A DNA stretch of 32,000 bases. Source: Megasphaera elsdenii DSM 20460 (GTDB lineage Bacteria; Bacillota; Negativicutes; Veillonellales; Megasphaeraceae). Position 1 is the first letter of the stretch. Every line of letters starts with the position of its first letter. The stretch is taken from positions 60,001 through 92,000 of the forward strand of contig NZ_CP027570.1 in NCBI RefSeq assembly GCF_003010495.1, written 5' to 3'. Positions 5,397 through 32,000 of this stretch are shown one piece after another. The notes below the pieces were generated by a model. That model was not told where the DNA came from. It saw only the letters and a list, made by a program, of their open reading frames with translations, and made no database searches. The translations under genes were made by a program, and so were the position numbers.

Positions 5397-5986
5397 CCGC
5401 GACATCAAAGATGTCGCTCCGCAGGGGCCGTCCCAAAGGGCGGTTTGCAGAGAAAACCTTCAAATTTAAAGCCATCCGCTAACAACTAACTGCTAGCCAC
5501 TAACAACTTTAAAGGGCTTGTCGTCGTGCGACAAGCCCTTTTTGAGTTTAAAGTTTGAAGTTAAGAGCAACCTCTCAGTCAGCTTCACTGACAGCTCTCC
5601 TATGAGGAGAGCCGGGCGCCGCCCTTCGGATTGCGTTGTTCACGGGATTCAGGCGGGCCGCCTTATCAGGACGGCCCCTACGAAAAGCCCCCAATCGGGA
5701 CCATTTTTACGAGTCGAGGGTCATCCAAGGCGATCTTGTCCCTTTGAGGCTCTGCCGTGCAACGGCCCCTACGACCTACGACCTACGAGCCACGAACCAC
5801 GAGCCACGAACCACGAGCCACGAACCTGCCGTGCAACGGCATCCGTAGGGGCCGTCCCAGAGGGCGGCCCGCTACGCGCTGAGGGTATCCCGAAGCGTCG
5901 TTTTCATTTTGAGTCTGTCGCGGCGGGCCGCCGCATCTGAGTCCGAAGCGGCCAGCGGCCTGCGAACTGCAGCCTGCGAAAATGGA
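5397..5986. repeat. Composite intergenic repeat block: GC-rich hairpin units, the 71-nt module (5468-5538), a heptamer array (5768-5823) and short perfect hairpins
   Basis: Hairpin units lie at 5421-5446, 5645-5683 and 5844-5872. Two copies of CTGCCGTGCAACGGC (5752-5766 and 5826-5840) flank eight tandem heptamers. Additional hairpins are GCGACAT-CAAAG-ATGTCGC (5397-5417) and CTCTCCT-ATG-AGGAGAG (~5596-5612). Confidence 0.8.
5514..5543 (+). terminator. Terminator-like hairpin (part of the 71-nt module), with no plus-strand gene upstream
   Basis: The sequence is GGGCTTGTCG-TCGTG-CGACAAGCCC followed by TTTTT. Confidence 0.5.
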
Positions 5987-8635: not shown

Positions 8636-11600
8636 CTACATGGCAAAGAGGTCGATCTGTTCATCTTCGGGAAGATCGCCCAGGCAGCCTTCCTGGCTCA
8701 TGACGTCGACCAGGGACTGGGACACTTTGCCGCGCATCTTGAGGTCGGCCTTGGAACTGAACGGCGCCTGCTCGCGGGCCGATACGATCTGTTCGGCTAC
8801 GTTGGCGCCCAGGCCGTCGATGGCCGTAAAGGGCGGCAGGATCTTGCCGTCGCAGATGGTGAACTTCGTCGCCGCCGAGCGGTTGATATCGACGTTCATG
8901 AAGGAAAAACCGCGCAGGCTCATTTCCTTGGCCAGTTCCAGCGCCGAATAGAGGTCCTGCTCGATCTTCGATGCGCTCTTGCCCTTGGCGGCGATTTCCT
9001 TCATGGCCCGTTCCTGCCCTTCCAGGCCGTGGATCATAGCCGACAGCTTGAAGGCCTTGGCGCGAATCGTGAAGAAAGCGCAGTAGTAGGCCAACGGCTG
9101 GTTGATCTTATACCAGGCGATGCGGAAAGCCATCATGACGTAGGCCACGGCGTGGGCCCTCGGGAAGAGGTAGCCGATCTTATGGCACGAGTCGATGAAC
9201 CACTGCGGGATATGGCCGGCTTTCAGCTCCCCTTCGTAGTCCGTCGTCTTCTGGCCCAATTTATTGAGCTTGTCGATGCCCTTGCCCTTACGGACATTTT
9301 CCATGACCTTGAAACTCGTCTTGGGCTTGATGCCGTGCTGGATGAGATAGTTCATGATGTCGTCACGCGTCGAGACGGCTTCCTTCAGGGGAACCGTGCC
9401 CGACGTAATCAGGTCCTGGGCATTGTTCAGCCAGACGTCGGTGCCGTGGGAGAAACCGGAAATGCGGACCAATTCAGAAAAGGTCTTGGGCTTGGTGTCG
9501 ACGAGCATCTGGCGGACGAAAGACGTGCCAAATTCCGGGATGCCCAGGCTGCCGACTTTCGAGCCCAGCTCTTCCGGCGTCACGCCCAGGGCCTTGGTCG
9601 AACTGAACAGGCTCAAGGTGGCCGGGTCATCAAAGGGAATGGTCGTCGCCTTGATGCCGGTCATATCTTCGAGCATACGGATGACCGTCGGATCATCATG
9701 GCCGAGGATGTCGAGCTTGACCAGACGGCCTTCGATGGAGTGATAATCGAAATGGGTCGTAATGATGCCGCTGTCCTTCTTGTTGGCCGGGTACTGGACG
9801 GGCGTGAAATGATGGACGTCCATATCGCGGGGAATGACCATGACGCCGCCCGGATGCTGGCCTGTCGTATTCTTGATGCCCGTGCAACCGGCGACGAGGC
9901 TGTTGACGTAAGCGTCATTGACCTTGATGCCCTTGGCTTCGGCCCACTTCATGACATAGCCATAGGCCGTCTTGTCCTTCACAGCACCGATAGTCCCGGC
10001 GCGGAAAACGTTGTCCTTGCCGAACAGTTCTTCTGTATACTTATGGGCTTTCGGATGGTATTCGCCAGAGAAATTGAGGTCGATATCAGGGACCTTGTCG
10101 CCGTCGAAGCCCAAGAAGATAGCGAAAGGAATATTATGGCCGTTCTTATGAAGTGGCGTACCGCACTGTGGGCAGACCTTGTCCGGCAAGTCGAAACCGC
10201 CGCCCACTTCGCCGTGCGTAAAGAATTCGCTCCACTGGCATTTCGGGCAGACATAATGAGGCGGCAAAGGATTGACTTCGGTAATATCCGACATGGTCGC
10301 CACGAAGGACGAGCCGACAGACCCACGGGAGCCGACGAGGTAGCCGTCATCGTTGGAGTGCTTGACCAGCTTGTGTGCAATGTAATAGAGGACGCCGAAA
10401 CCATGGCCTAAAATGGACGTAAATTCTTCTTCCAGCCGGTCTTCGACGATTTTCGGCAGCGGGTCGCCGTAAATTTCATGAGCCTTTTTATAACACATGT
10501 TCTTCAGCGCTTCCGATGACCCGGCGATTTGCGGGAAATAGAGCGTTTCCTTCGGTACCGGCCGGCAGTCGGCAATCATATCGTTGATCTTATTGGGGTT
10601 GGTAATGACCACTTCCCGCGCCCGTTCTTCGCCGAGATAGGCAAATTCCGCCAGCATCTCGTCTGTCGTGCGCAGGTACAGATCCGGCTGAAATTCGGCA
10701 TCCTTGAAGCCCTTGCCGGTCATGAGGATTTCCCGGTAAATCTTGTCTTCCGGGTTCATGAAATGAGCATCACACGTGGCGACAGTCAATTTCCCCAAAT
10801 CATCGCCGAGCTTGAGAATCGTCCGGTTGATGTCGCGCAGGCCTTCTTCATCGGCGACGAAGCCTTCGCGGACGAGGAAGCCGTTGTTGGTGAGGGGCTG
10901 GATTTCCAGATAATCGTAGAACGACGCGATTTTCTTCAGCTCTTCATAAGGCAGCTTCTTCTGGACCATGGACCGCACCAGTTCGCCGGCTTCACAAGCC
11001 GAACCCAGGATGAGGCCTTCGCGGTATTCCGACAGGACCGCCCGGGGGATGCGCGGCCGGCCGCGGTAGATATATTTCAGATGGGAAATGCTGACCAGTT
11101 TATAGAGATTGCGGATGCCGATCTGGTTCTTGGCCAGGATGATGATGTGGTACGACTGGTCGATCTTATCGTCAAAGAGATAGCCTTCCATGCCGTAAAT
11201 GACCTTGACGTTGTTGGTCTTATCCGTCGAAATTTCCTGGAGCAGCGGGAACGACTGGACGACGCCGTGGTCGGTGACGGCGACGGCCGGATGGCCCCAC
11301 TTCTTGATAGTCTTGATGAGCTGCTTGACCGTGATCAGGGCGTCCATGTCGCTCATGACCGTATGCAGGTGGAGTTCGACGCGCGGCGTCGGATTGTGGT
11401 CTTCCCGTTCCACCGTGCCGCCGTCGGCTTCCATCATGTCGTAGGCCATGAGGACGTAGTCGTTCTGGTAATTATCATACTGGATATTGCCGTGGACCCG
11501 GACATAGACGCCGGGCTTGAGCTTCTTGACCAGGTTGTCGTATTCTTCCGGCGTCAGCGTATTCTTGCGGCGGTACTTGCCGCCACCGCCCTGATTGCTG

Positions 11601-12274
11601 ACGTCGAGGAACTTCTTGGCCGAAATACCGTTGGTGCTGTCGGCCATCTGGAAGGTCAGGAGGGTACGTTTCGACTTGAGCTCGCGGAACTCGACCTTGA
11701 CGACCTTGCCCTTGAGGATGACGTCGTTCTGTTCCTCGCCGAGGACGTCGTTGATGGAGACGGCATCGCCGCCAAAGGCCCGGCCCATCCAGACCCGGCT
11801 GTCACTGCCAGTCTTGGTGCCGCTGCCCTTGCTGCCCTTCTTGGCGCTGCTGTCGCCGCTCTGGGACGCCGACTGGCAGGCCTTCTTGTAATCGGCATCG
11901 TCGTACAATTCATCGTCGACGTCGTAAATGGCATCATAGCAGTCTTCGTGGGGAATCCCGTAGCCTTCCATATCGTCAGTGGAAATATCGGCGACCTGAC
12001 GCAGCGGGTCGTTGTCGGGTACGGCCAGGGACATGTCGCCGCCGTGGAAAACAGACGTCACGCGGTGTTCGACAGATACCGTCCCATCCAGGCCCAATTT
12101 GCGGCAGACCCGGTCGCGGAGCAGGTCCATGTCGCCGATAGCATAAGGCGACTCGGTCTTGACATGCCAGGCATGGCCGGCCAGATCCGCCGCAATCGAA
12201 GCGATGGTCACGGAACGCCCGCCATCGGCGGGAATCAAAATATCATTTTTAGGAACAATATGCCAGACTTTCAT
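8636..12274 (-). CDS. polC: DNA polymerase III alpha subunit, PolC type, lacking the internal 3'-5' exonuclease domain
   Basis: The OB fold is N-terminal to the PHP domain (VILKGKVVKVEFRELKSKRTLLTFQMADSTNGISAKKF). PHP motifs are present (RVELHLHTVMSDMDA, HPAVAVTDHGVVQSFP). The PolC zinc module is present (YVCPKCQWSEFF...CPQCGTPLHKNGHNIPFAIFLGFDGDKVPDIDLNFSGEY). The protein is 1212 aa, against about 1430 aa for classical PolC. Confidence 0.93.
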   Translation of the reverse strand: MKVWHIVPKNDILIPADGGRSVTIASIAADLAGHAWHVKTESPYAIGDMDLLRDRVCRKLGLDGTVSVEHRVTSVFHGGDMSLAVPDNDPLRQVADISTDDMEGYGIPHEDCYDAIYDVDDELYDDADYKKACQSASQSGDSSAKKGSKGSGTKTGSDSRVWMGRAFGGDAVSINDVLGEEQNDVILKGKVVKVEFRELKSKRTLLTFQMADSTNGISAKKFLDVSNQGGGGKYRRKNTLTPEEYDNLVKKLKPGVYVRVHGNIQYDNYQNDYVLMAYDMMEADGGTVEREDHNPTPRVELHLHTVMSDMDALITVKQLIKTIKKWGHPAVAVTDHGVVQSFPLLQEISTDKTNNVKVIYGMEGYLFDDKIDQSYHIIILAKNQIGIRNLYKLVSISHLKYIYRGRPRIPRAVLSEYREGLILGSACEAGELVRSMVQKKLPYEELKKIASFYDYLEIQPLTNNGFLVREGFVADEEGLRDINRTILKLGDDLGKLTVATCDAHFMNPEDKIYREILMTGKGFKDAEFQPDLYLRTTDEMLAEFAYLGEERAREVVITNPNKINDMIADCRPVPKETLYFPQIAGSSEALKNMCYKKAHEIYGDPLPKIVEDRLEEEFTSILGHGFGVLYYIAHKLVKHSNDDGYLVGSRGSVGSSFVATMSDITEVNPLPPHYVCPKCQWSEFFTHGEVGGGFDLPDKVCPQCGTPLHKNGHNIPFAIFLGFDGDKVPDIDLNFSGEYHPKAHKYTEELFGKDNVFRAGTIGAVKDKTAYGYVMKWAEAKGIKVNDAYVNSLVAGCTGIKNTTGQHPGGVMVIPRDMDVHHFTPVQYPANKKDSGIITTHFDYHSIEGRLVKLDILGHDDPTVIRMLEDMTGIKATTIPFDDPATLSLFSSTKALGVTPEELGSKVGSLGIPEFGTSFVRQMLVDTKPKTFSELVRISGFSHGTDVWLNNAQDLITSGTVPLKEAVSTRDDIMNYLIQHGIKPKTSFKVMENVRKGKGIDKLNKLGQKTTDYEGELKAGHIPQWFIDSCHKIGYLFPRAHAVAYVMMAFRIAWYKINQPLAYYCAFFTIRAKAFKLSAMIHGLEGQERAMKEIAAKGKSASKIEQDLYSALELAKEMSLRGFSFMNVDINRSAATKFTICDGKILPPFTAIDGLGANVAEQIVSAREQAPFSSKADLKMRGKVSQSLVDVMSQEGCLGDLPEDEQIDLFAM

Positions 12275-12275
12275 A

Positions 12276-12480
12276 TATTTTCCTTTCTATGTCAACTACT
12301 CCCGACTAAAGTCGGGAGCTTGTAGGTCGGAACTGCATAGGTACTAACGGCATCAAAAGATGTCTTCCTAAATCCGCCTACATCATCGGGTGGCTGACAA
12401 CACCCGCTTTGCTAAGGAGTTTACTCCGAAGCAGTTGTTATTCTTTCATAATGAGGATGGTTATCTCCGGAAATCCACAT
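12276..12480 (-). ncRNA. Predicted omega RNA (reRNA) of TnpB: scaffold from the tnpB 3' end through the right-end hairpin, guide in the flanking DNA
   Basis: By analogy with characterised TnpB systems, the RNA overlaps the tnpB 3' end and the right end of the element. Several stem-loops are visible here, for example GGTGTTGTCAGCCACC and the right-end hairpin. The boundaries are not determined. Confidence 0.4.
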
Positions 12481-13647
12481 AGTTCCGAGGAGTTGGATAT
12501 TCATAGCTCCGATACGGTCATCGTTAGATCTGTAACCACACTGACAACGATATAAGTGTTTGTGATGGTCACGGTTTTCTTTGTGGATAGTACCGCATTT
12601 GGGACAACGTTGAGAGGTATACTGAGCAGATACCATCAGAACTTCGGAACGATTTTCATGAGCCTTATAGGTCAAGAATTGCTCCAACTGATAGAACGCC
12701 CAGCTGCGCAGGTCGTAATTTTGTTTAGCCGTTTTTGAAAGATGGGACTCTTCGAAGCTAACACCGGTCAAATCTTCAAGCACAAACAGCGTATCTTTGC
12801 CGTATTTTTCAACGAGTGTCTTAGAAATCCGATGGTTTACATCAGACATCCAACGGTTCTCTCGTCCTGAAATGGCCTTGAGTCTATGCTTTGCTGATTT
12901 TGTGCCTTTAGACTGGAGCTGGCGGCGGACTTCCTGAAATTTATGGCGTTTAGTAGCCATCTTCTTACCAGAGACGAATTCAGTTTTGCCCTGTTCGTCG
13001 TAACTAACAGTAAGAAAACGTAATCCACGGTCAATACCGACAACGTGACGGACGTTTTCTTTCTGAAAATCTTCGACAGCTTGGGTTACGGGAATATGGA
13101 GATACCATAAACCTTTGAGTTCGACCAGTTTTGCTGTTCCAAGGTCATAAGCGCCATCAAGATATTCCGCAAAATGCTTGCCCTCAAAGGCGCATTTAGT
13201 TCTTTTCCCGAGCGTATTGATGGACAGAACCTGTCCGCTATCAACGAAGCTATAATCACGATTGCGAACCAAGTCCGCTTGTGGGCGGCTAAAGAACACA
13301 GGCTTCCAAAGCCATTCCCATGTCTTGGCGATGCGTTTCCAGTTGCCATTCTCATCCTTATATCTGTAAGGATTTTGGAAGAGCTGTTGTTTTACCGTCT
13401 TATATCTGGCAATCGTCGTCTTGATAGAAGACTGGGCCAGCTGCGATTTCAGACCGAACTGGCTGCGCAGGTCACTGTACAGCTCTCTGTTGAGACTTTG
13501 GTAGGTCATGTTAAATCGGTGGTCGAAGATGTACTGCGACACGAAGTTACAAGCCTGACGGTATTGTTCCGTCATCTGACGGAACAGCGTCTCTTGTTCG
13601 GGAGTAACGTGTATACGAAGTTTTATCGTTTTAGTTAGGCTAGACAT
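12421..13647 (-). CDS. tnpB: IS200/IS605-family RNA-guided endonuclease TnpB (OrfB), apparently intact
   Basis: RuvC-like motifs are present: VVGIDRG, FVLEDL and SNDDRIGAMNI. The zinc finger is CPKCG...CQCG. The N-terminus KLRIHVTPEQETLFRQMTEQYRQACNFVS is typical of OrfB/TnpB. Confidence 0.9.
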   Translation of the reverse strand: MSSLTKTIKLRIHVTPEQETLFRQMTEQYRQACNFVSQYIFDHRFNMTYQSLNRELYSDLRSQFGLKSQLAQSSIKTTIARYKTVKQQLFQNPYRYKDENGNWKRIAKTWEWLWKPVFFSRPQADLVRNRDYSFVDSGQVLSINTLGKRTKCAFEGKHFAEYLDGAYDLGTAKLVELKGLWYLHIPVTQAVEDFQKENVRHVVGIDRGLRFLTVSYDEQGKTEFVSGKKMATKRHKFQEVRRQLQSKGTKSAKHRLKAISGRENRWMSDVNHRISKTLVEKYGKDTLFVLEDLTGVSFEESHLSKTAKQNYDLRSWAFYQLEQFLTYKAHENRSEVLMVSAQYTSQRCPKCGTIHKENRDHHKHLYRCQCGYRSNDDRIGAMNIQLLGTMWISGDNHPHYERITTASE

Positions 13648-13691
13648 TTTTTCACCTGCCTTTCTAAAATCTATACTACTTCATTAAAATT

Positions 13692-13700
13692 ATTATATCA
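13692..13700 (-). promoter_or_regulatory. Extended -10 promoter element (TGATATAAT) for tnpB
   Basis: The minus strand reads TGATATAAT about 45 nt upstream of the tnpB ATG. The RBS is AAAGGCAGGTGA. Confidence 0.45.
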
Positions 13701-13806
13701 TAATTTTTTTGCTAAAAGTCTATTATTTATTATTGAAAGGAGGGGAGGTGCGGCTCCTCTCATGACTAAAGTCACGAGTCTCCGCCGCACCATGAAGATG
13801 AATAGG

Positions 13807-13898
13807 GGATTCAGGCGGGCCGCCCTTTGGGACGGCCCCTACGAAGCGGTCTGCGGGCCGCCTTAGCAGGACGGTCCCTACGAAGGACGGCTCCTACA
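13807..13898 (+). repeat. Two and a half tandem GC-rich hairpin repeat units between the VanW-family gene and the IS left end
   Basis: The units are GGATTCAGGCGGGCCGCCCTTTGGGACGGCCCCTACGA (13807-13844), CTGCGGGCCGCCTTAGCAGGACGGTCCCTACGA (13851-13883) and the partial AGGACGGCTCCTACA. Confidence 0.8.
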
Positions 13899-13910
13899 TT
13901 AACCGATGAG

Positions 13911-15455
13911 TTATTCCTCATCGGCCGTATCGGCCGTATCGGCTGTATCGGCTGTATCGGCCGCCGGGACATTGAAGTCCATCATGTCGTGGGGCGCGTT
14001 GAGAAGCGGGTCCTGCGGTTCCAGGTCGGCCGTGCTGACGACTTCTTCGCTGTCGTCGCCGGGCGTGAGGATAATTTCATCATTCGGGTCGTAATGTGAC
14101 TCGATGGTATCGACATGGCGGTCGCCGTCGCTGTAAGCCACGGTCCGGCGGATAGTCACGTCGTGGCCGTCATAGCCTTCCTGCTTGCGCTTATCTTCGG
14201 TCACACTATCATCGTGCTTCTTGATGACCTTATGGGGCAGGTTCTGGAGATGCGTCGTTTCAAAGGACACACTGCACGTATCGGCGTGATTGCCCAGGAT
14301 GTACGTCGTCACCGTATTCTTGCCGGCCACCGTATAGACACAGACCGGGTGCTGGAAAGGATTGGTAAAGGAGAAGTCCAGGCCGTCATCGGCGACGGTC
14401 GCATCCATGCCGACGGGCACATACGCGGCCGGAGCGAAATGCGGTTCCCGGCTGGCAATGAACAGACCGGCCCGCAGTGCGGCATTGAACAAAGTCGTGC
14501 TGACCTGGCAGACACCGCCGCCGGTGGACTGTTCCAATTTATTCTCGAAATACGACGGCGCCGGCTTATAGCCCTTGTCCGCCGTCCGCGTGCCGACATA
14601 CTTATTGAAAGAGAAATCCTTCTGAGCCATGACGACGGCGTGGTTCAGGCGCTGCTGGGCCAGGCGGATGTTGACGTTGCGGTCGGGATTGGTATCGTCA
14701 AAATGCGTCGTATAGTACGACAAGACTGTGTCGATATCCTTGAGGTCATCGGCCTTGATGTCCGCCCCTTCCCGGCTGTCTACGGGAACGTCCAGGGTAT
14801 CCGTCTTGCCCGTATGCAGTTCATCGGTCACGGCGTCCTTCAGCTTACCCGTATTGATGACGATGCGGTCCTTGGCGTCTTCGATAGCAACAGTCTTCTG
14901 GTCATCCTTGACATAGGCATAGGCATTCTGCGGGTCCTTATCGTACTTGTCGTGGACATCGGACAAGACCTTATCCAATTTATCGTCGTCGACGGCAATG
15001 GCCAAAGGCACATCCTTGCCATGGCGGAGCGTCGTCACCACATCGGCCACGCGCTGCCAGGGCAGGCCCCGGCGGCCGACGAGATGCAATTCATCGTCGA
15101 TATAGGCCCGATCCAATTTAGCCCCCAGTTCATCGAGATCCAGCGTCACATCGACACCGTCCGTCGCCAGGCGCAGCTTCTTATCTTCTACATCCTTCTC
15201 ATGGAGATCCAGATAATTGGTAATATCATCGGGCGTCATATCGGCAATGGATTGGCCGTTGAGGGTCACCATCTGTTCCGCCTTGCTCTGGGCCGCAAAA
15301 AAGCCGCCGAACCCAATCACACACAAAGCGACAATCACAGCCGCCCGCTTCTTCCAGGACGGCCTTTCCTTTTCCGGAGGCAGCCCGTGCTTTTCCCGGT
15401 ACCGCCGGCGATATTCCTTCATCCGTTCTTTCCGTGCTCGTTCTTCGTCAGTCAC
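13911..15455 (-). CDS. VanW-family protein with an N-terminal membrane anchor
   Basis: The VanW core is FSFNKYVGTRTADKGYKPAPSYFENKLEQSTGGGVCQVSTTLFNAALRAGLFIASREPHF...GMDATV. One TM helix is present (AAVIVALCVIGFGGFFAA). The start is GTG 15455 with an AAAGGCAGG RBS. Confidence 0.85.
   Translation of the reverse strand: MTDEERARKERMKEYRRRYREKHGLPPEKERPSWKKRAAVIVALCVIGFGGFFAAQSKAEQMVTLNGQSIADMTPDDITNYLDLHEKDVEDKKLRLATDGVDVTLDLDELGAKLDRAYIDDELHLVGRRGLPWQRVADVVTTLRHGKDVPLAIAVDDDKLDKVLSDVHDKYDKDPQNAYAYVKDDQKTVAIEDAKDRIVINTGKLKDAVTDELHTGKTDTLDVPVDSREGADIKADDLKDIDTVLSYYTTHFDDTNPDRNVNIRLAQQRLNHAVVMAQKDFSFNKYVGTRTADKGYKPAPSYFENKLEQSTGGGVCQVSTTLFNAALRAGLFIASREPHFAPAAYVPVGMDATVADDGLDFSFTNPFQHPVCVYTVAGKNTVTTYILGNHADTCSVSFETTHLQNLPHKVIKKHDDSVTEDKRKQEGYDGHDVTIRRTVAYSDGDRHVDTIESHYDPNDEIILTPGDDSEEVVSTADLEPQDPLLNAPHDMMDFNVPAADTADTADTADTADEE
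13920..13964 (-). repeat. In-frame 9-bp tandem repeat (5 units) encoding (ADT)n at the VanW-family C-terminus
   Basis: The plus strand reads ATCGGCCGT, ATCGGCCGT, ATCGGCTGT, ATCGGCTGT, ATCGGCCGC. It translates to ADTADTADTADTADEE. Confidence 0.9.
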
Positions 15456-29898: not shown

Positions 29899-32000
29899 CT
29901 ATTTCTTGCCGACGTACTGACGGATCATTTCTCCCTGTTCCTTGACCAGAGCTTCCAGTTCGGCAATCTTCTTATCCTGCTGATCCACCGTATTTTCCAG
30001 GCTTTCAATCTTCTTAGCCATGGCCGTCTTCGACGTCGTGATGCCGCTGCCACCTTGACCAATCTTGAAGCTCAAGCCGGCGTTAAACATATTTTCCCCG
30101 TTGCCGAAATTCGTACCCAGACTGAACATGGTATCTTCATTGGGACGATAGAAGGCACCCAAAGCGACACTGTTGGCATTGCGGTAATTGCCGTAACCAA
30201 CGGCGAAATCCCACTTATCATTAGGGTCGAAGTCCAATGGATGAAGCGCTGCCAAAGCAGCCGCACCAGCACCGACCTTGTTGACGCGGTTATCGAGGTC
30301 AGAAACGCGGTTGTTGATGTGGTAAATGGATTCCGTGTTGGCAGCGACCTGATGATCCAAAGCCGTTATGTTTTGGCCAGCTGTGTTAGCCTGTCTGATG
30401 AAGATTCCGTCCTTTTCGACTCTCGTTTCCTTGTAGACGGTCCCGGCATTGACGGCGTTCTTAGAGCCTTCCTCAATCGTGGTGTTGGCTACATTCTAGA
30501 TGGTCGTGTCTTCCCGCAGCGTAACGGTCTTGCTGTCGTCACCGTCATAGTTGACGGCGTTCTTGGTCGCAGCTTGCAACTGGTCTTCCGTAGCAGCCTG
30601 ACCGGACGTAATGTTCTTGGCGTCCCAGGTCTTGTTAGTCAATCCACCAATCGTGCCTTTGTCATCCTTGTTGATGGTGACCTTGCCAATGGCAGCGGAA
30701 CCTGTCACTTCGAGGTCTTTTGTTGTAATCTTATTAGCTGCTGTAACTGAATCGACATTCAGATCTTTATTCAGGGAAATCTGATAATTCGCTGCTTCTC
30801 CCTCTTTGGCAATATTTTCAACAGAAAGATTAGCATCTTCCGTTGATACAATAGTATGCTTGCCTGCAGCTTCTGACGCATATTTAATGGCTTCGTCAAG
30901 TTTTCCAATGGAAGTCGTGACGTCTTCACCTTTTTTAACGTACTTCGTGCTGCTGTAGTCAAGATTCCCCACTTTGTTATCTACATGATTGACAGCATCT
31001 ACTACGGTCGTTTTACCTTCAGCATTTTTAATATCTGCATTCAAATCCGTTACATTGCCTACATCACTGGCTTTGGCTACATCCGTAATCCGGACGGTAC
31101 CAACTTTTCCCGTCTTATCTACAACGTCTATCGATACGCCCTGCACTGACTGGCCATCCTTGTCTGTAATAGTACCAACGGCATAATCTCCAGCCGTGAT
31201 ATGTGTATCATTGGCATCGGCTGTGGCCTGTGTCATCGCTTCGTGGAGCTGAGCTTCCGTAGCAGCCTTTGTAGACTGAGAATAATCTTTCGTTTTATCC
31301 CAGGTCGTATTAGACAAACCTGTAATCACATTATGCTGACCGTCTACAGTCACATTACCAGAAGTAACAGTTGTGGCTTGCAGACTGTTGAGACCTGTAA
31401 TGTCTTTTGCAAGACGAATATTCAAGGTATCATCATCTTTTCTTACAACACCAATGTTAGCAGCGTCAACAGTTTCGGTCGCTCCTCCGACAATATTAAG
31501 TTGCTCATTCAACTTTCTCGATATGACTTTGCTATTATCTGACTTTCCGTCATCACCAGCAAATGTTAAACCATCCGTACTTTTAGCCAATCCGTCCGTA
31601 TTTAAGCCAATCGTATATTCGATACCCTTTCCTTTGTTAACGCCTGTGTTATCTACTGTAATACGACTGTTTGCAGCCGCTTTGACAGTCGCATGCTTGG
31701 CAGCCTCTATAGCTACGGCATAAAGTTCGCTCCCATTGACGGCATCCGTACTCGTAGGCGTAACACGTCCGGCGGCTACGTTCGTAATAGTCCGTACCAC
31801 TTTATCATTACCTACACTAACGATTCCGCTTGGCCACCCGCCGCTTACACTATAGTTGCTGTTAAGATTCGGAATCGTAAGAGACATGACATTGTAATCA
31901 TTCAAGTTTCCCGAAGCTTCCGAACCTTGGCCCAGGGCAACGGAATTTTCTACTGAAACCTTTGCATCTTTCCCAATGGCAACAGATTTTGCACCGGAAA
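29899..32000 (-). pseudogene. Trimeric autotransporter adhesin (YadA/Hia-like); 5' end outside the window; interrupted by one in-frame TAG at 30496-30498
   Basis: The YadA membrane anchor is AGAAALAALHPLDFDPNDKWDFAVGYGNYRNANSVALGAFYRPNEDTMFSLGTNFGNGENMFNAGLSFKIG. A coiled-coil tail follows (KKIESLENTVDQQDKKIAELEALVKEQ). Upstream stalk and head repeats are present (SVAIGKDAKVSVENSVALGQGSEASG). ORFs 30496-31905 and 29899-30360 are in the same frame, and the frame stays open to position 32000. Confidence 0.8.

Follow-up and report, generated by a model that had tools for sequence, protein, structure and literature searches.

How is one to understand a gene for the RNA-guided endonuclease TnpB that lies, in the same orientation, immediately upstream of the gene of a replicative DNA polymerase? 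The question is raised by a stretch of 32,000 nucleotides of the chromosome of Megasphaera elsdenii DSM 20460 (positions 60,001 to 92,000 of NZ_CP027570.1, hereafter the window), in which tnpB stands between a vanW-like gene and polC. An earlier reading of this DNA (the original prediction) had proposed a TnpB-only element of the IS200/IS605 family, with an omega-RNA guide that is the polC ribosome-binding region, and had suggested that TnpB could process the polC leader. Most of the anatomy that it described holds, but it made too much of what the arrangement means. We consider it very probable that the locus represents an ordinary TnpB-only IS200/IS605 insertion carrying an omega-RNA module, which landed before polC and through which polC is transcribed (Table 1).

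The element is a genuine insertion in the vanW-polC spacer. The comparison of related genomes that had been recommended gave empty sites in three sister species (loci L009, L010 and L011), which read ...CCTGAATCCCCTATTCAT followed by ATAGAAAGGAAA..ATG, so that ATAGAAAGGAAA stands directly to the right of the motif TTCAT. In the window, the element is inserted 3' of this motif (13802-13798): the filled site is ...TTCAT, element, ATAGAAAGG, versus ...TTCAT and then ATAGAAAGG at the empty sites, and its full reading is ...CCTATTCAT, the element from CTTCATGGTGCGG to GGGAGTAGTTGAC, and ATAGAAAGGAAAATATATG. This comparison fixes both junctions to the base, with no target-site duplication. The span first given, 12275-13805, has to be shortened to 12291-13797, since it adds a 16-nt flank or guide (12275-12290), TTCAT (13798-13802) and three more bases. 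The element terminates in ...GTAGTTGAC, 16 nt ahead of the polC ATG (12274-12272) and 5 nt ahead of the conserved Shine-Dalgarno (SD) sequence GAAAGGA. In a metagenome-assembled genome contig with another right flank (L002), divergence begins exactly past ...TTGAC. The G+C content is about 45% inside the segment (about 12290-13790) versus about 58% in its flanks.

The distribution of the insertion was followed by a scan with the PolC N-terminus, one genome per species, which gave 17 Megasphaera-type loci. None of these 17 loci from other species contains tnpB, and vanW is directly followed by polC in all 16 that reach far enough upstream. The order vanW-tnpB-polC is found in five M. elsdenii assemblies, including DSM 20460, and tnpB adjoins polC in all eight contigs with this exact PolC that extend upstream. 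Over this region, the window matches CP198969.1 at 100% identity and HE576794.1, the DSM 20460 chromosome, at 99.4%.

Table 1. Coordinates of the element, its predicted RNA parts and the neighbouring genes (positions are those of the window)
Feature	Position	Strand	Basis or remark
Gene order comEC - holA - vanW - tnpB - polC		minus	order in the window
holA	16552-15533	minus	
vanW-like gene	13911..15455	minus	Pfam VanW; ancestral polC neighbour, same direction as tnpB and polC
TTCAT target or transposon-adjacent motif (TAM), directly 5' of the left end	13798..13802	minus	empty sites L009-L011
Complete TnpB-only IS200/IS605-family element, 1507 bp	12291..13797	minus	filled versus empty site comparison
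Left-end subterminal compound hairpin	13747..13791	minus	outer stem GGTGCGGC/GCCGCACC; inner stem CTCGTGAC-TTTA-GTCATGAG at 13759-13778; read from sequence
Extended -10 box TGATATAAT, probable tnpB promoter	13692..13700	minus	conserved in most related copies; putative function
tnpB, open reading frame (ORF) of 408 aa	12421..13647	minus	Pfam OrfB_IS605 and Cas12f1-like_TNB; NCBIfam guided_TnpB
Predicted omega-RNA scaffold	12291..12451	minus	RNAalifold, covariation, covariance model R1
Right-end subterminal hairpin CTCCCGAC-TTTA-GTCGGGAG	12299..12318	minus	doubles as the final helix of the predicted RNA
Predicted 16-nt guide, host flank ATAGAAAGGAAAATAT	12275..12290	minus	directly 3' of the conserved right end; unique in the window
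polC (PolC-type DNA polymerase III alpha, 1212 aa)	8636..12274	minus	co-oriented with tnpB; NCBIfam PolC equivalog

The encoded protein matches the NCBIfam 'RNA-guided endonuclease TnpB family' (NF040570) with 208.7 bits for a cut-off of 100, as well as Pfam PF01385 and PF07282. As first described, its RuvC residues (D206, E291, D377) and zinc finger (C348/C351/C368/C370) are intact: in phmmer comparisons with PDB chains, GIDRG, LEDLTG and NDDRIGAMNI align with the RuvC motifs of Cas12f/TnpB structures, and CPKCG...CQCG with their zinc finger (CxxC..CxC). To this RuvC D/E/D triad with zinc finger, the locus adds the other marks of IS200/IS605 elements, namely insertion 3' of a specific short motif and subterminal imperfect palindromes at both ends. 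Terminal inverted repeats are absent, the ends CTTCATGG... and ...GTAGTTGAC not being inverted repeats of each other. In line with what had been noted, the element encodes no Y1 (HUH) TnpA, with only 150 nt from the left end to tnpB in a total of 1507 bp (no genome-wide search for tnpA was made). Lacking tnpA, an element of this length fits the non-autonomous IS1341 subgroup, which requires TnpA in trans. The IS1341 group comprises the TnpB-only members of IS200/IS605 in the ISfinder classification. By group description, it shares with our element the presence of tnpB only, a length of about 1.5 kb and multiple copies at different sites in several genera.

The element belongs to a large family. 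Thousands of TnpB homologues are found at 86 to 96% identity, under source names that include Dialister, Phascolarctobacterium, Acidaminococcus, Mitsuokella and Megasphaera, and we compared 80 metagenome loci of relatives. Past the tnpB stop codon, copies at about 47 distinct insertion sites remain conserved as far as ...G(T)(A/C)GTTGAC, and the flanks that follow are unrelated; on the left, the element directly follows TTCAT at 40 of 49 distinct sites. Because the element measures about 1470 to 1550 bp in nearly all copies, none of them carries tnpA. In one M. elsdenii isolate, a further copy with the same hairpins is flanked by nadC and a mutY-like gene. Megablast found the element in neither plasmid nor phage records, and the literature held nothing specific on this TnpB family in Megasphaera, nor on insertion between an SD and a start codon.

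The family also displays a bias in its insertion sites. TTCAT, the TAM of the family, is the reverse complement of ATGAA, and at 18 of 40 distinct TTCAT sites the element is wedged between the SD and the start codon of a gene on the opposite strand (the opposite-strand ORF starts exactly at that ATG, and the SD complement lies just past the right end). Only 7 to 12% of control ATGAA sites fit the same description. Such insertions would uncouple these genes from their ribosome-binding site (RBS). Target accessibility, an extended motif or selection may be the cause. Sense-orientation insertions that directly precede a gene start, like the one at polC, are less frequent (about 4 of 47).

At both ends of the element, hairpins are present at the places first indicated, 12299-12318 and 13759-13778, and the right one is separated from the polC ATG by the 24-nt spacer first counted. 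A pattern search expects 0 chance matches for two such 20-nt hairpins. They differ at four bases in two stem pairs, T-A versus C-G, which is fully compensatory, and G.T versus C-G. The left hairpin sits inside a longer stem, and its counterpart was found in related copies. Across subfamilies, end hairpins appear shuffled, with at least four right-end types and several left-end types on TnpBs that are 85 to 96% identical (L024-L103), which points to ends being exchanged as modules, or to several partner TnpAs. As hairpins vary by subfamily, 50-nt end probes missed most ends of relatives, and alignment from the tnpB start and stop was used instead.

Downstream of the tnpB coding region, and overlapping its 3' end, the family conserves a structured RNA that stops at the right end and is followed by variable flank, as is characteristic of OMEGA systems. 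On the last 230 nt of 44 non-identical copies, RNAalifold gave a consensus of 41 pairs, 19 of them with compensatory changes; 97.4% of scaffold cells are paired, versus 34 to 50% after sliding the partners by 1 to 3 columns, and none of 500 shuffles reached the observed covariation. The predicted scaffold is made of a hairpin over the tnpB stop codon, a CGGGUG/CACCCG hairpin, a multi-branch stem UGUAGGCGG/CCGACCUACA, the terminal hairpin and an GUAGUUGAC tail. All six pairs of the right-end hairpin (helix 7) show compensatory changes across the family. The search with an omega-RNA covariance model that had been advised bore out this structure: model R1, built only from subfamilies with other hairpin sequences and without the window copy, matches 12451-12291 (177.5 bits, E 2e-43), and the match stops on 12291, the last base of the element. 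A second match at 30829-30931 on the minus strand, within a 469-aa ORF, is probably due to chance (13.9 bits, E 0.048). By analogy with characterised homologues, TnpB would perform RNA-guided, TAM-dependent DNA cleavage.

What, then, is the meaning of a guide drawn from the polC leader? Characterised systems take their guide from the DNA that flanks the right end (Meers et al.; Nety et al., PMC10278001), and by analogy 12275-12290 would be used as guide here; flanks of relatives are unrelated from the first base past the right end. The predicted guide holds the polC SD (12281-12287) at its positions 4-10, and a 20-nt guide would include the ATG (ATAGAAAGGAAAATAT(ATGA)). The original prediction is correct in placing the polC SD/start region directly beyond the right end, but the idea that this identity is meaningful in itself is not supported, as every IS200/IS605 guide is flank. 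The guide corresponds to the start region of polC because of the insertion point, and no special adaptation is involved. With the element in place, the sequence that matches the guide follows TTGAC instead of TTCAT, so that the nuclease should not bind there, TAM recognition being strict in tested homologues (Meers et al.). The guide has moreover the same sense as the polC mRNA, and cannot act as an antisense RNA. The element is a routine representative of a family already known, and its 'polC guide' simply results from the landing site.

The insertion also bears on the transcription of polC. In more distant species (L013-L016), only about 35 nt separate the vanW stop codon from the polC ATG, which indicates that polC was ancestrally co-transcribed with vanW. 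The GC-rich hairpins of the vanW-element spacer are without U tract, and the same hairpin stands just before polC in the empty-site relatives. Neither a terminator nor a promoter consensus exceeds shuffle expectation on the minus strand from 13647 to 12274, in agreement with the original prediction, so that polC transcripts cross at least the right end. As only 5 nt lie between the element and the SD, all mRNAs of polC must have their 5' end in the element or farther upstream, which places the scaffold in their leader. The extended -10 pointed out at 13692-13700 reads as TGATATAAT once reverse-complemented. This aTGaTATAAT box upstream of tnpB is kept in most related copies, as a TATAAT-type box usually with the TG extension. 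The promoter that serves polC may be that of tnpB or, by read-through, that of vanW.

We propose the following scenario. A non-autonomous IS1341-like IS200/IS605 element, widespread in gut Negativicutes, would have inserted by the usual single-strand mechanism of the family directly 3' of TTCAT in the vanW-polC spacer of the M. elsdenii lineage, and would then have been inherited. It would have brought along a promoter of its own (an extended -10), an intact tnpB and a guide-RNA scaffold of about 160 nt ending at the right end, the guide being the next 16 nt or so of host DNA, which happen to be the polC ribosome-binding region. If the element behaves like ISDra2 and the ISGst elements, the TnpB-RNA complex would recognise TTCAT followed by ATAGAAAGGAAAATAT, a pairing present only at the vacant site; cutting of the site left vacant by excision would allow the element to be restored by recombination. 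Expression of polC would be ensured by read-through from the tnpB promoter, from the comEC-holA-vanW operon, or from both.

Several points weigh against this scenario. No tnpA that would account for movement of the element was found. Both the guide RNA with its ends and the start of polC transcription are predictions. The tnpB promoter has no good -35 and went unscored by the consensus promoter scan, and a non-consensus promoter may exist within the last 150 nt or so of the element. No omega-RNA, intron or other family of Rfam matches at gathering score in the whole window, nor at E<=5 on 12100-14000, where the only hits are two sub-threshold small-RNA look-alikes over the hairpins. Finally, the element is 2 to 4% mosaic-divergent in metagenome contigs whose polC DNA shows 0 differences over 3639 positions.

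These contigs deserve a comment of their own. On contigs with a 100% identical polC (L002, L107, L110, L104-L111), elements are either 2 to 4% mosaic-divergent or joined to other left or right flanks, which encode thioredoxin/DsbA, GH18 or DBI_PRT. Recombination between paralogous M. elsdenii copies may have produced them, or repeat mis-assembly. We did not retain the mosaic divergence as evidence of gene conversion, as it is inseparable from mis-assembly of repeats; isolate genomes differ by at most 0.6%.

Could polC have a promoter of its own within the right end (about 12300-12450), in which case a longer leader would be the only effect of the element, and polC would need neither the tnpB promoter nor read-through from vanW? 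Guide RNAs of other TnpB systems are sometimes thought to have internal promoters, and in the metagenome contigs L107 and L110 the polC-proximal right end is joined to other left flanks with opposite-strand genes. If these two contigs are real, polC is driven from within the element; alternatively, they may be repeat-induced chimeras. However, this part of the minus strand holds no sigma-70-like site, a manual reading found no properly spaced pair of hexamers, and the TTGACA at the junction has no usable -10, so that we regard a separate polC promoter as unlikely. Somewhat less probable still is a coupling in cis, whereby TnpB bound to the scaffold in the leader would hold the next 16 nt or so, with SD and start codon, in its guide channel, and thus reduce the translation of polC or make the leader accessible to host RNases; the level of a transposon protein would then tune the replicative polymerase. 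The SD does occupy guide positions 4-10, and tnpB and polC are co-oriented with no terminator between them. The biochemistry is informative here: TnpB trims its guide RNA on the 5' side but does not remove a 59-nt 3' extension, and RNAs extended in this way still serve it (Nety et al., PMC10278001). This speaks against the TnpB-mediated 3' processing of the polC leader that had been suggested, and it is compatible with coupling in cis, since TnpB sitting on the scaffold of long transcripts could possibly occlude the SD or invite host RNases. The idea is nevertheless purely inferential, any repression must be mild for an insertion fixed in a healthy species, and read-through transcripts probably outnumber TnpB molecules.

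Two further readings were considered. A domesticated TnpB, similar to the TldR transcription factors, might use the guide to bind the polC promoter or RBS DNA and so regulate the gene. TldRs (PMC10705468) are TnpB-family proteins whose guide matches the 5' regulatory region of a gene; at our locus too, the guide equals the regulatory region, and the element is fixed beside one gene in all M. elsdenii sensu stricto assemblies seen. We disfavour this reading and judge it very improbable. TldRs have an inactivated RuvC and have lost the transposon ends, whereas the triad of the M. elsdenii TnpB is intact, both ends are intact and common to mobile copies, near-identical copies lie at many unrelated sites, and the target at the occupied locus is preceded by TTGAC, a mismatch not expected to be tolerated given the strict TAM recognition of tested homologues (Meers et al.). 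The element is therefore not a TldR. Splicing of the element out of a vanW-polC transcript, in the manner of an IStron, seems scarcely credible. An IStron has been described in Megasphaera (PMC4227781), and the sense orientation within an operon would suit one. Yet the group I intron that IStrons carry in their 5' part, like any other Rfam family, went undetected in the searches described above, and there is no room for it in the 150 nt that precede tnpB, the element measuring 1507 bp compared with 1.8 to 2.2 kb for IStrons (PMC4227781).

The element can be compared with several known systems. ISDra2-type IS200/IS605 elements with TnpB and omega RNA were reportedly described by Karvelis in 2021. 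With these and with ISGst2-type elements, whose TnpB mechanism was studied by Meers et al. 2023, the M. elsdenii element shares insertion on the 3' side of a 5-nt motif with no duplication, subterminal hairpins, an intact RuvC nuclease, and the succession of tnpB and a structured RNA running to the right end, with a guide from the flank. It differs from them in lacking tnpA, as IS1341-like elements do, in that its activity is predicted from sequence, and in its target: TTCAT in Meers et al. belongs to the IscB of ISGst5, not to a TnpB. IStrons (CdISt1 and relatives; PMC4227781, PMC10690162) resemble it in that a TnpB element lies in sense within a host transcription unit, and host mRNA and guide RNA stem from one precursor and may compete. 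Without a group I intron, however, splicing cannot repair the M. elsdenii transcript, and the insertion lies in a spacer, not in a coding sequence.

The value of the locus resides in its location. It offers a natural, fixed case in which the only transcripts of an essential gene cross a guide-RNA scaffold, and it bears on the making of guide-RNA 3' ends, on TnpB binding of long read-through transcripts and on the cost or benefit of an insertion for its host. M. intestinihominis, Megasphaera sp. WILCCON 0056 and MGYG-HGUT-02555 provide empty-site relatives for isogenic-like comparison. A very abundant gut TnpB family gains a well-defined TAM (TTCAT), ends and an RNA model. Should coupling in cis prove true, a transposon nuclease would act as post-transcriptional governor of the replicative polymerase, and the element would be anchored, since imprecise loss would take the polC RBS, 5 nt away.

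The right end has another property of possible interest for expression. All copies end in TTGAC, which at polC is completed by the first flank base, A, to a perfect -35 hexamer, TTGACA (12290-12295, minus strand). Outward-directed hybrid promoters could thus arise through this family at sites that offer a -10 17 nt away. The polC junction was rejected as such a promoter, as manual reading finds no -10 at 16-18 nt and the transcript would start within polC.

Some observations concern the neighbouring genes. The downstream gene is identified as polC by the NCBIfam equivalog (1484.8 bits versus a cut-off of 873), in a short form of 1212 aa, and its N-terminus MKVWHIVP and SD GAAAGGA are kept across the 17 Megasphaera loci. 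PolC measures only 1204 to 1216 aa in 12 Megasphaera species, with a continuous PHP domain; no RNase_T/DEDD exonuclease motif was found in Megasphaera PolC, and about 230 positions of the PolC profile are unmatched. Throughout the genus, PolC seems to lack the proofreading domain that this polymerase usually contains as an insertion.

Repeats are present in the window as well. GC-rich sequences similar to repetitive extragenic palindromes (REP-like, GTAGGGGCCGTCC...GGCGGCCC) occur on both strands in several intergenic spacers (13803-13910, about 5677-5870 and about 15520), and sister species differ in how many of them the vanW-polC spacer contains. One such unit (CCTGAATCCCCTATTCAT) has as its tail the TTCAT next to which the element inserted. 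The 3' end of vanW contains a 9-nt sequence (ATCGGCCGT/ATCGGCTGT) repeated in tandem (13920-13955); VanW length differs between strains, from 494 to 514 aa, which is consistent with copy-number variation of this repeat.

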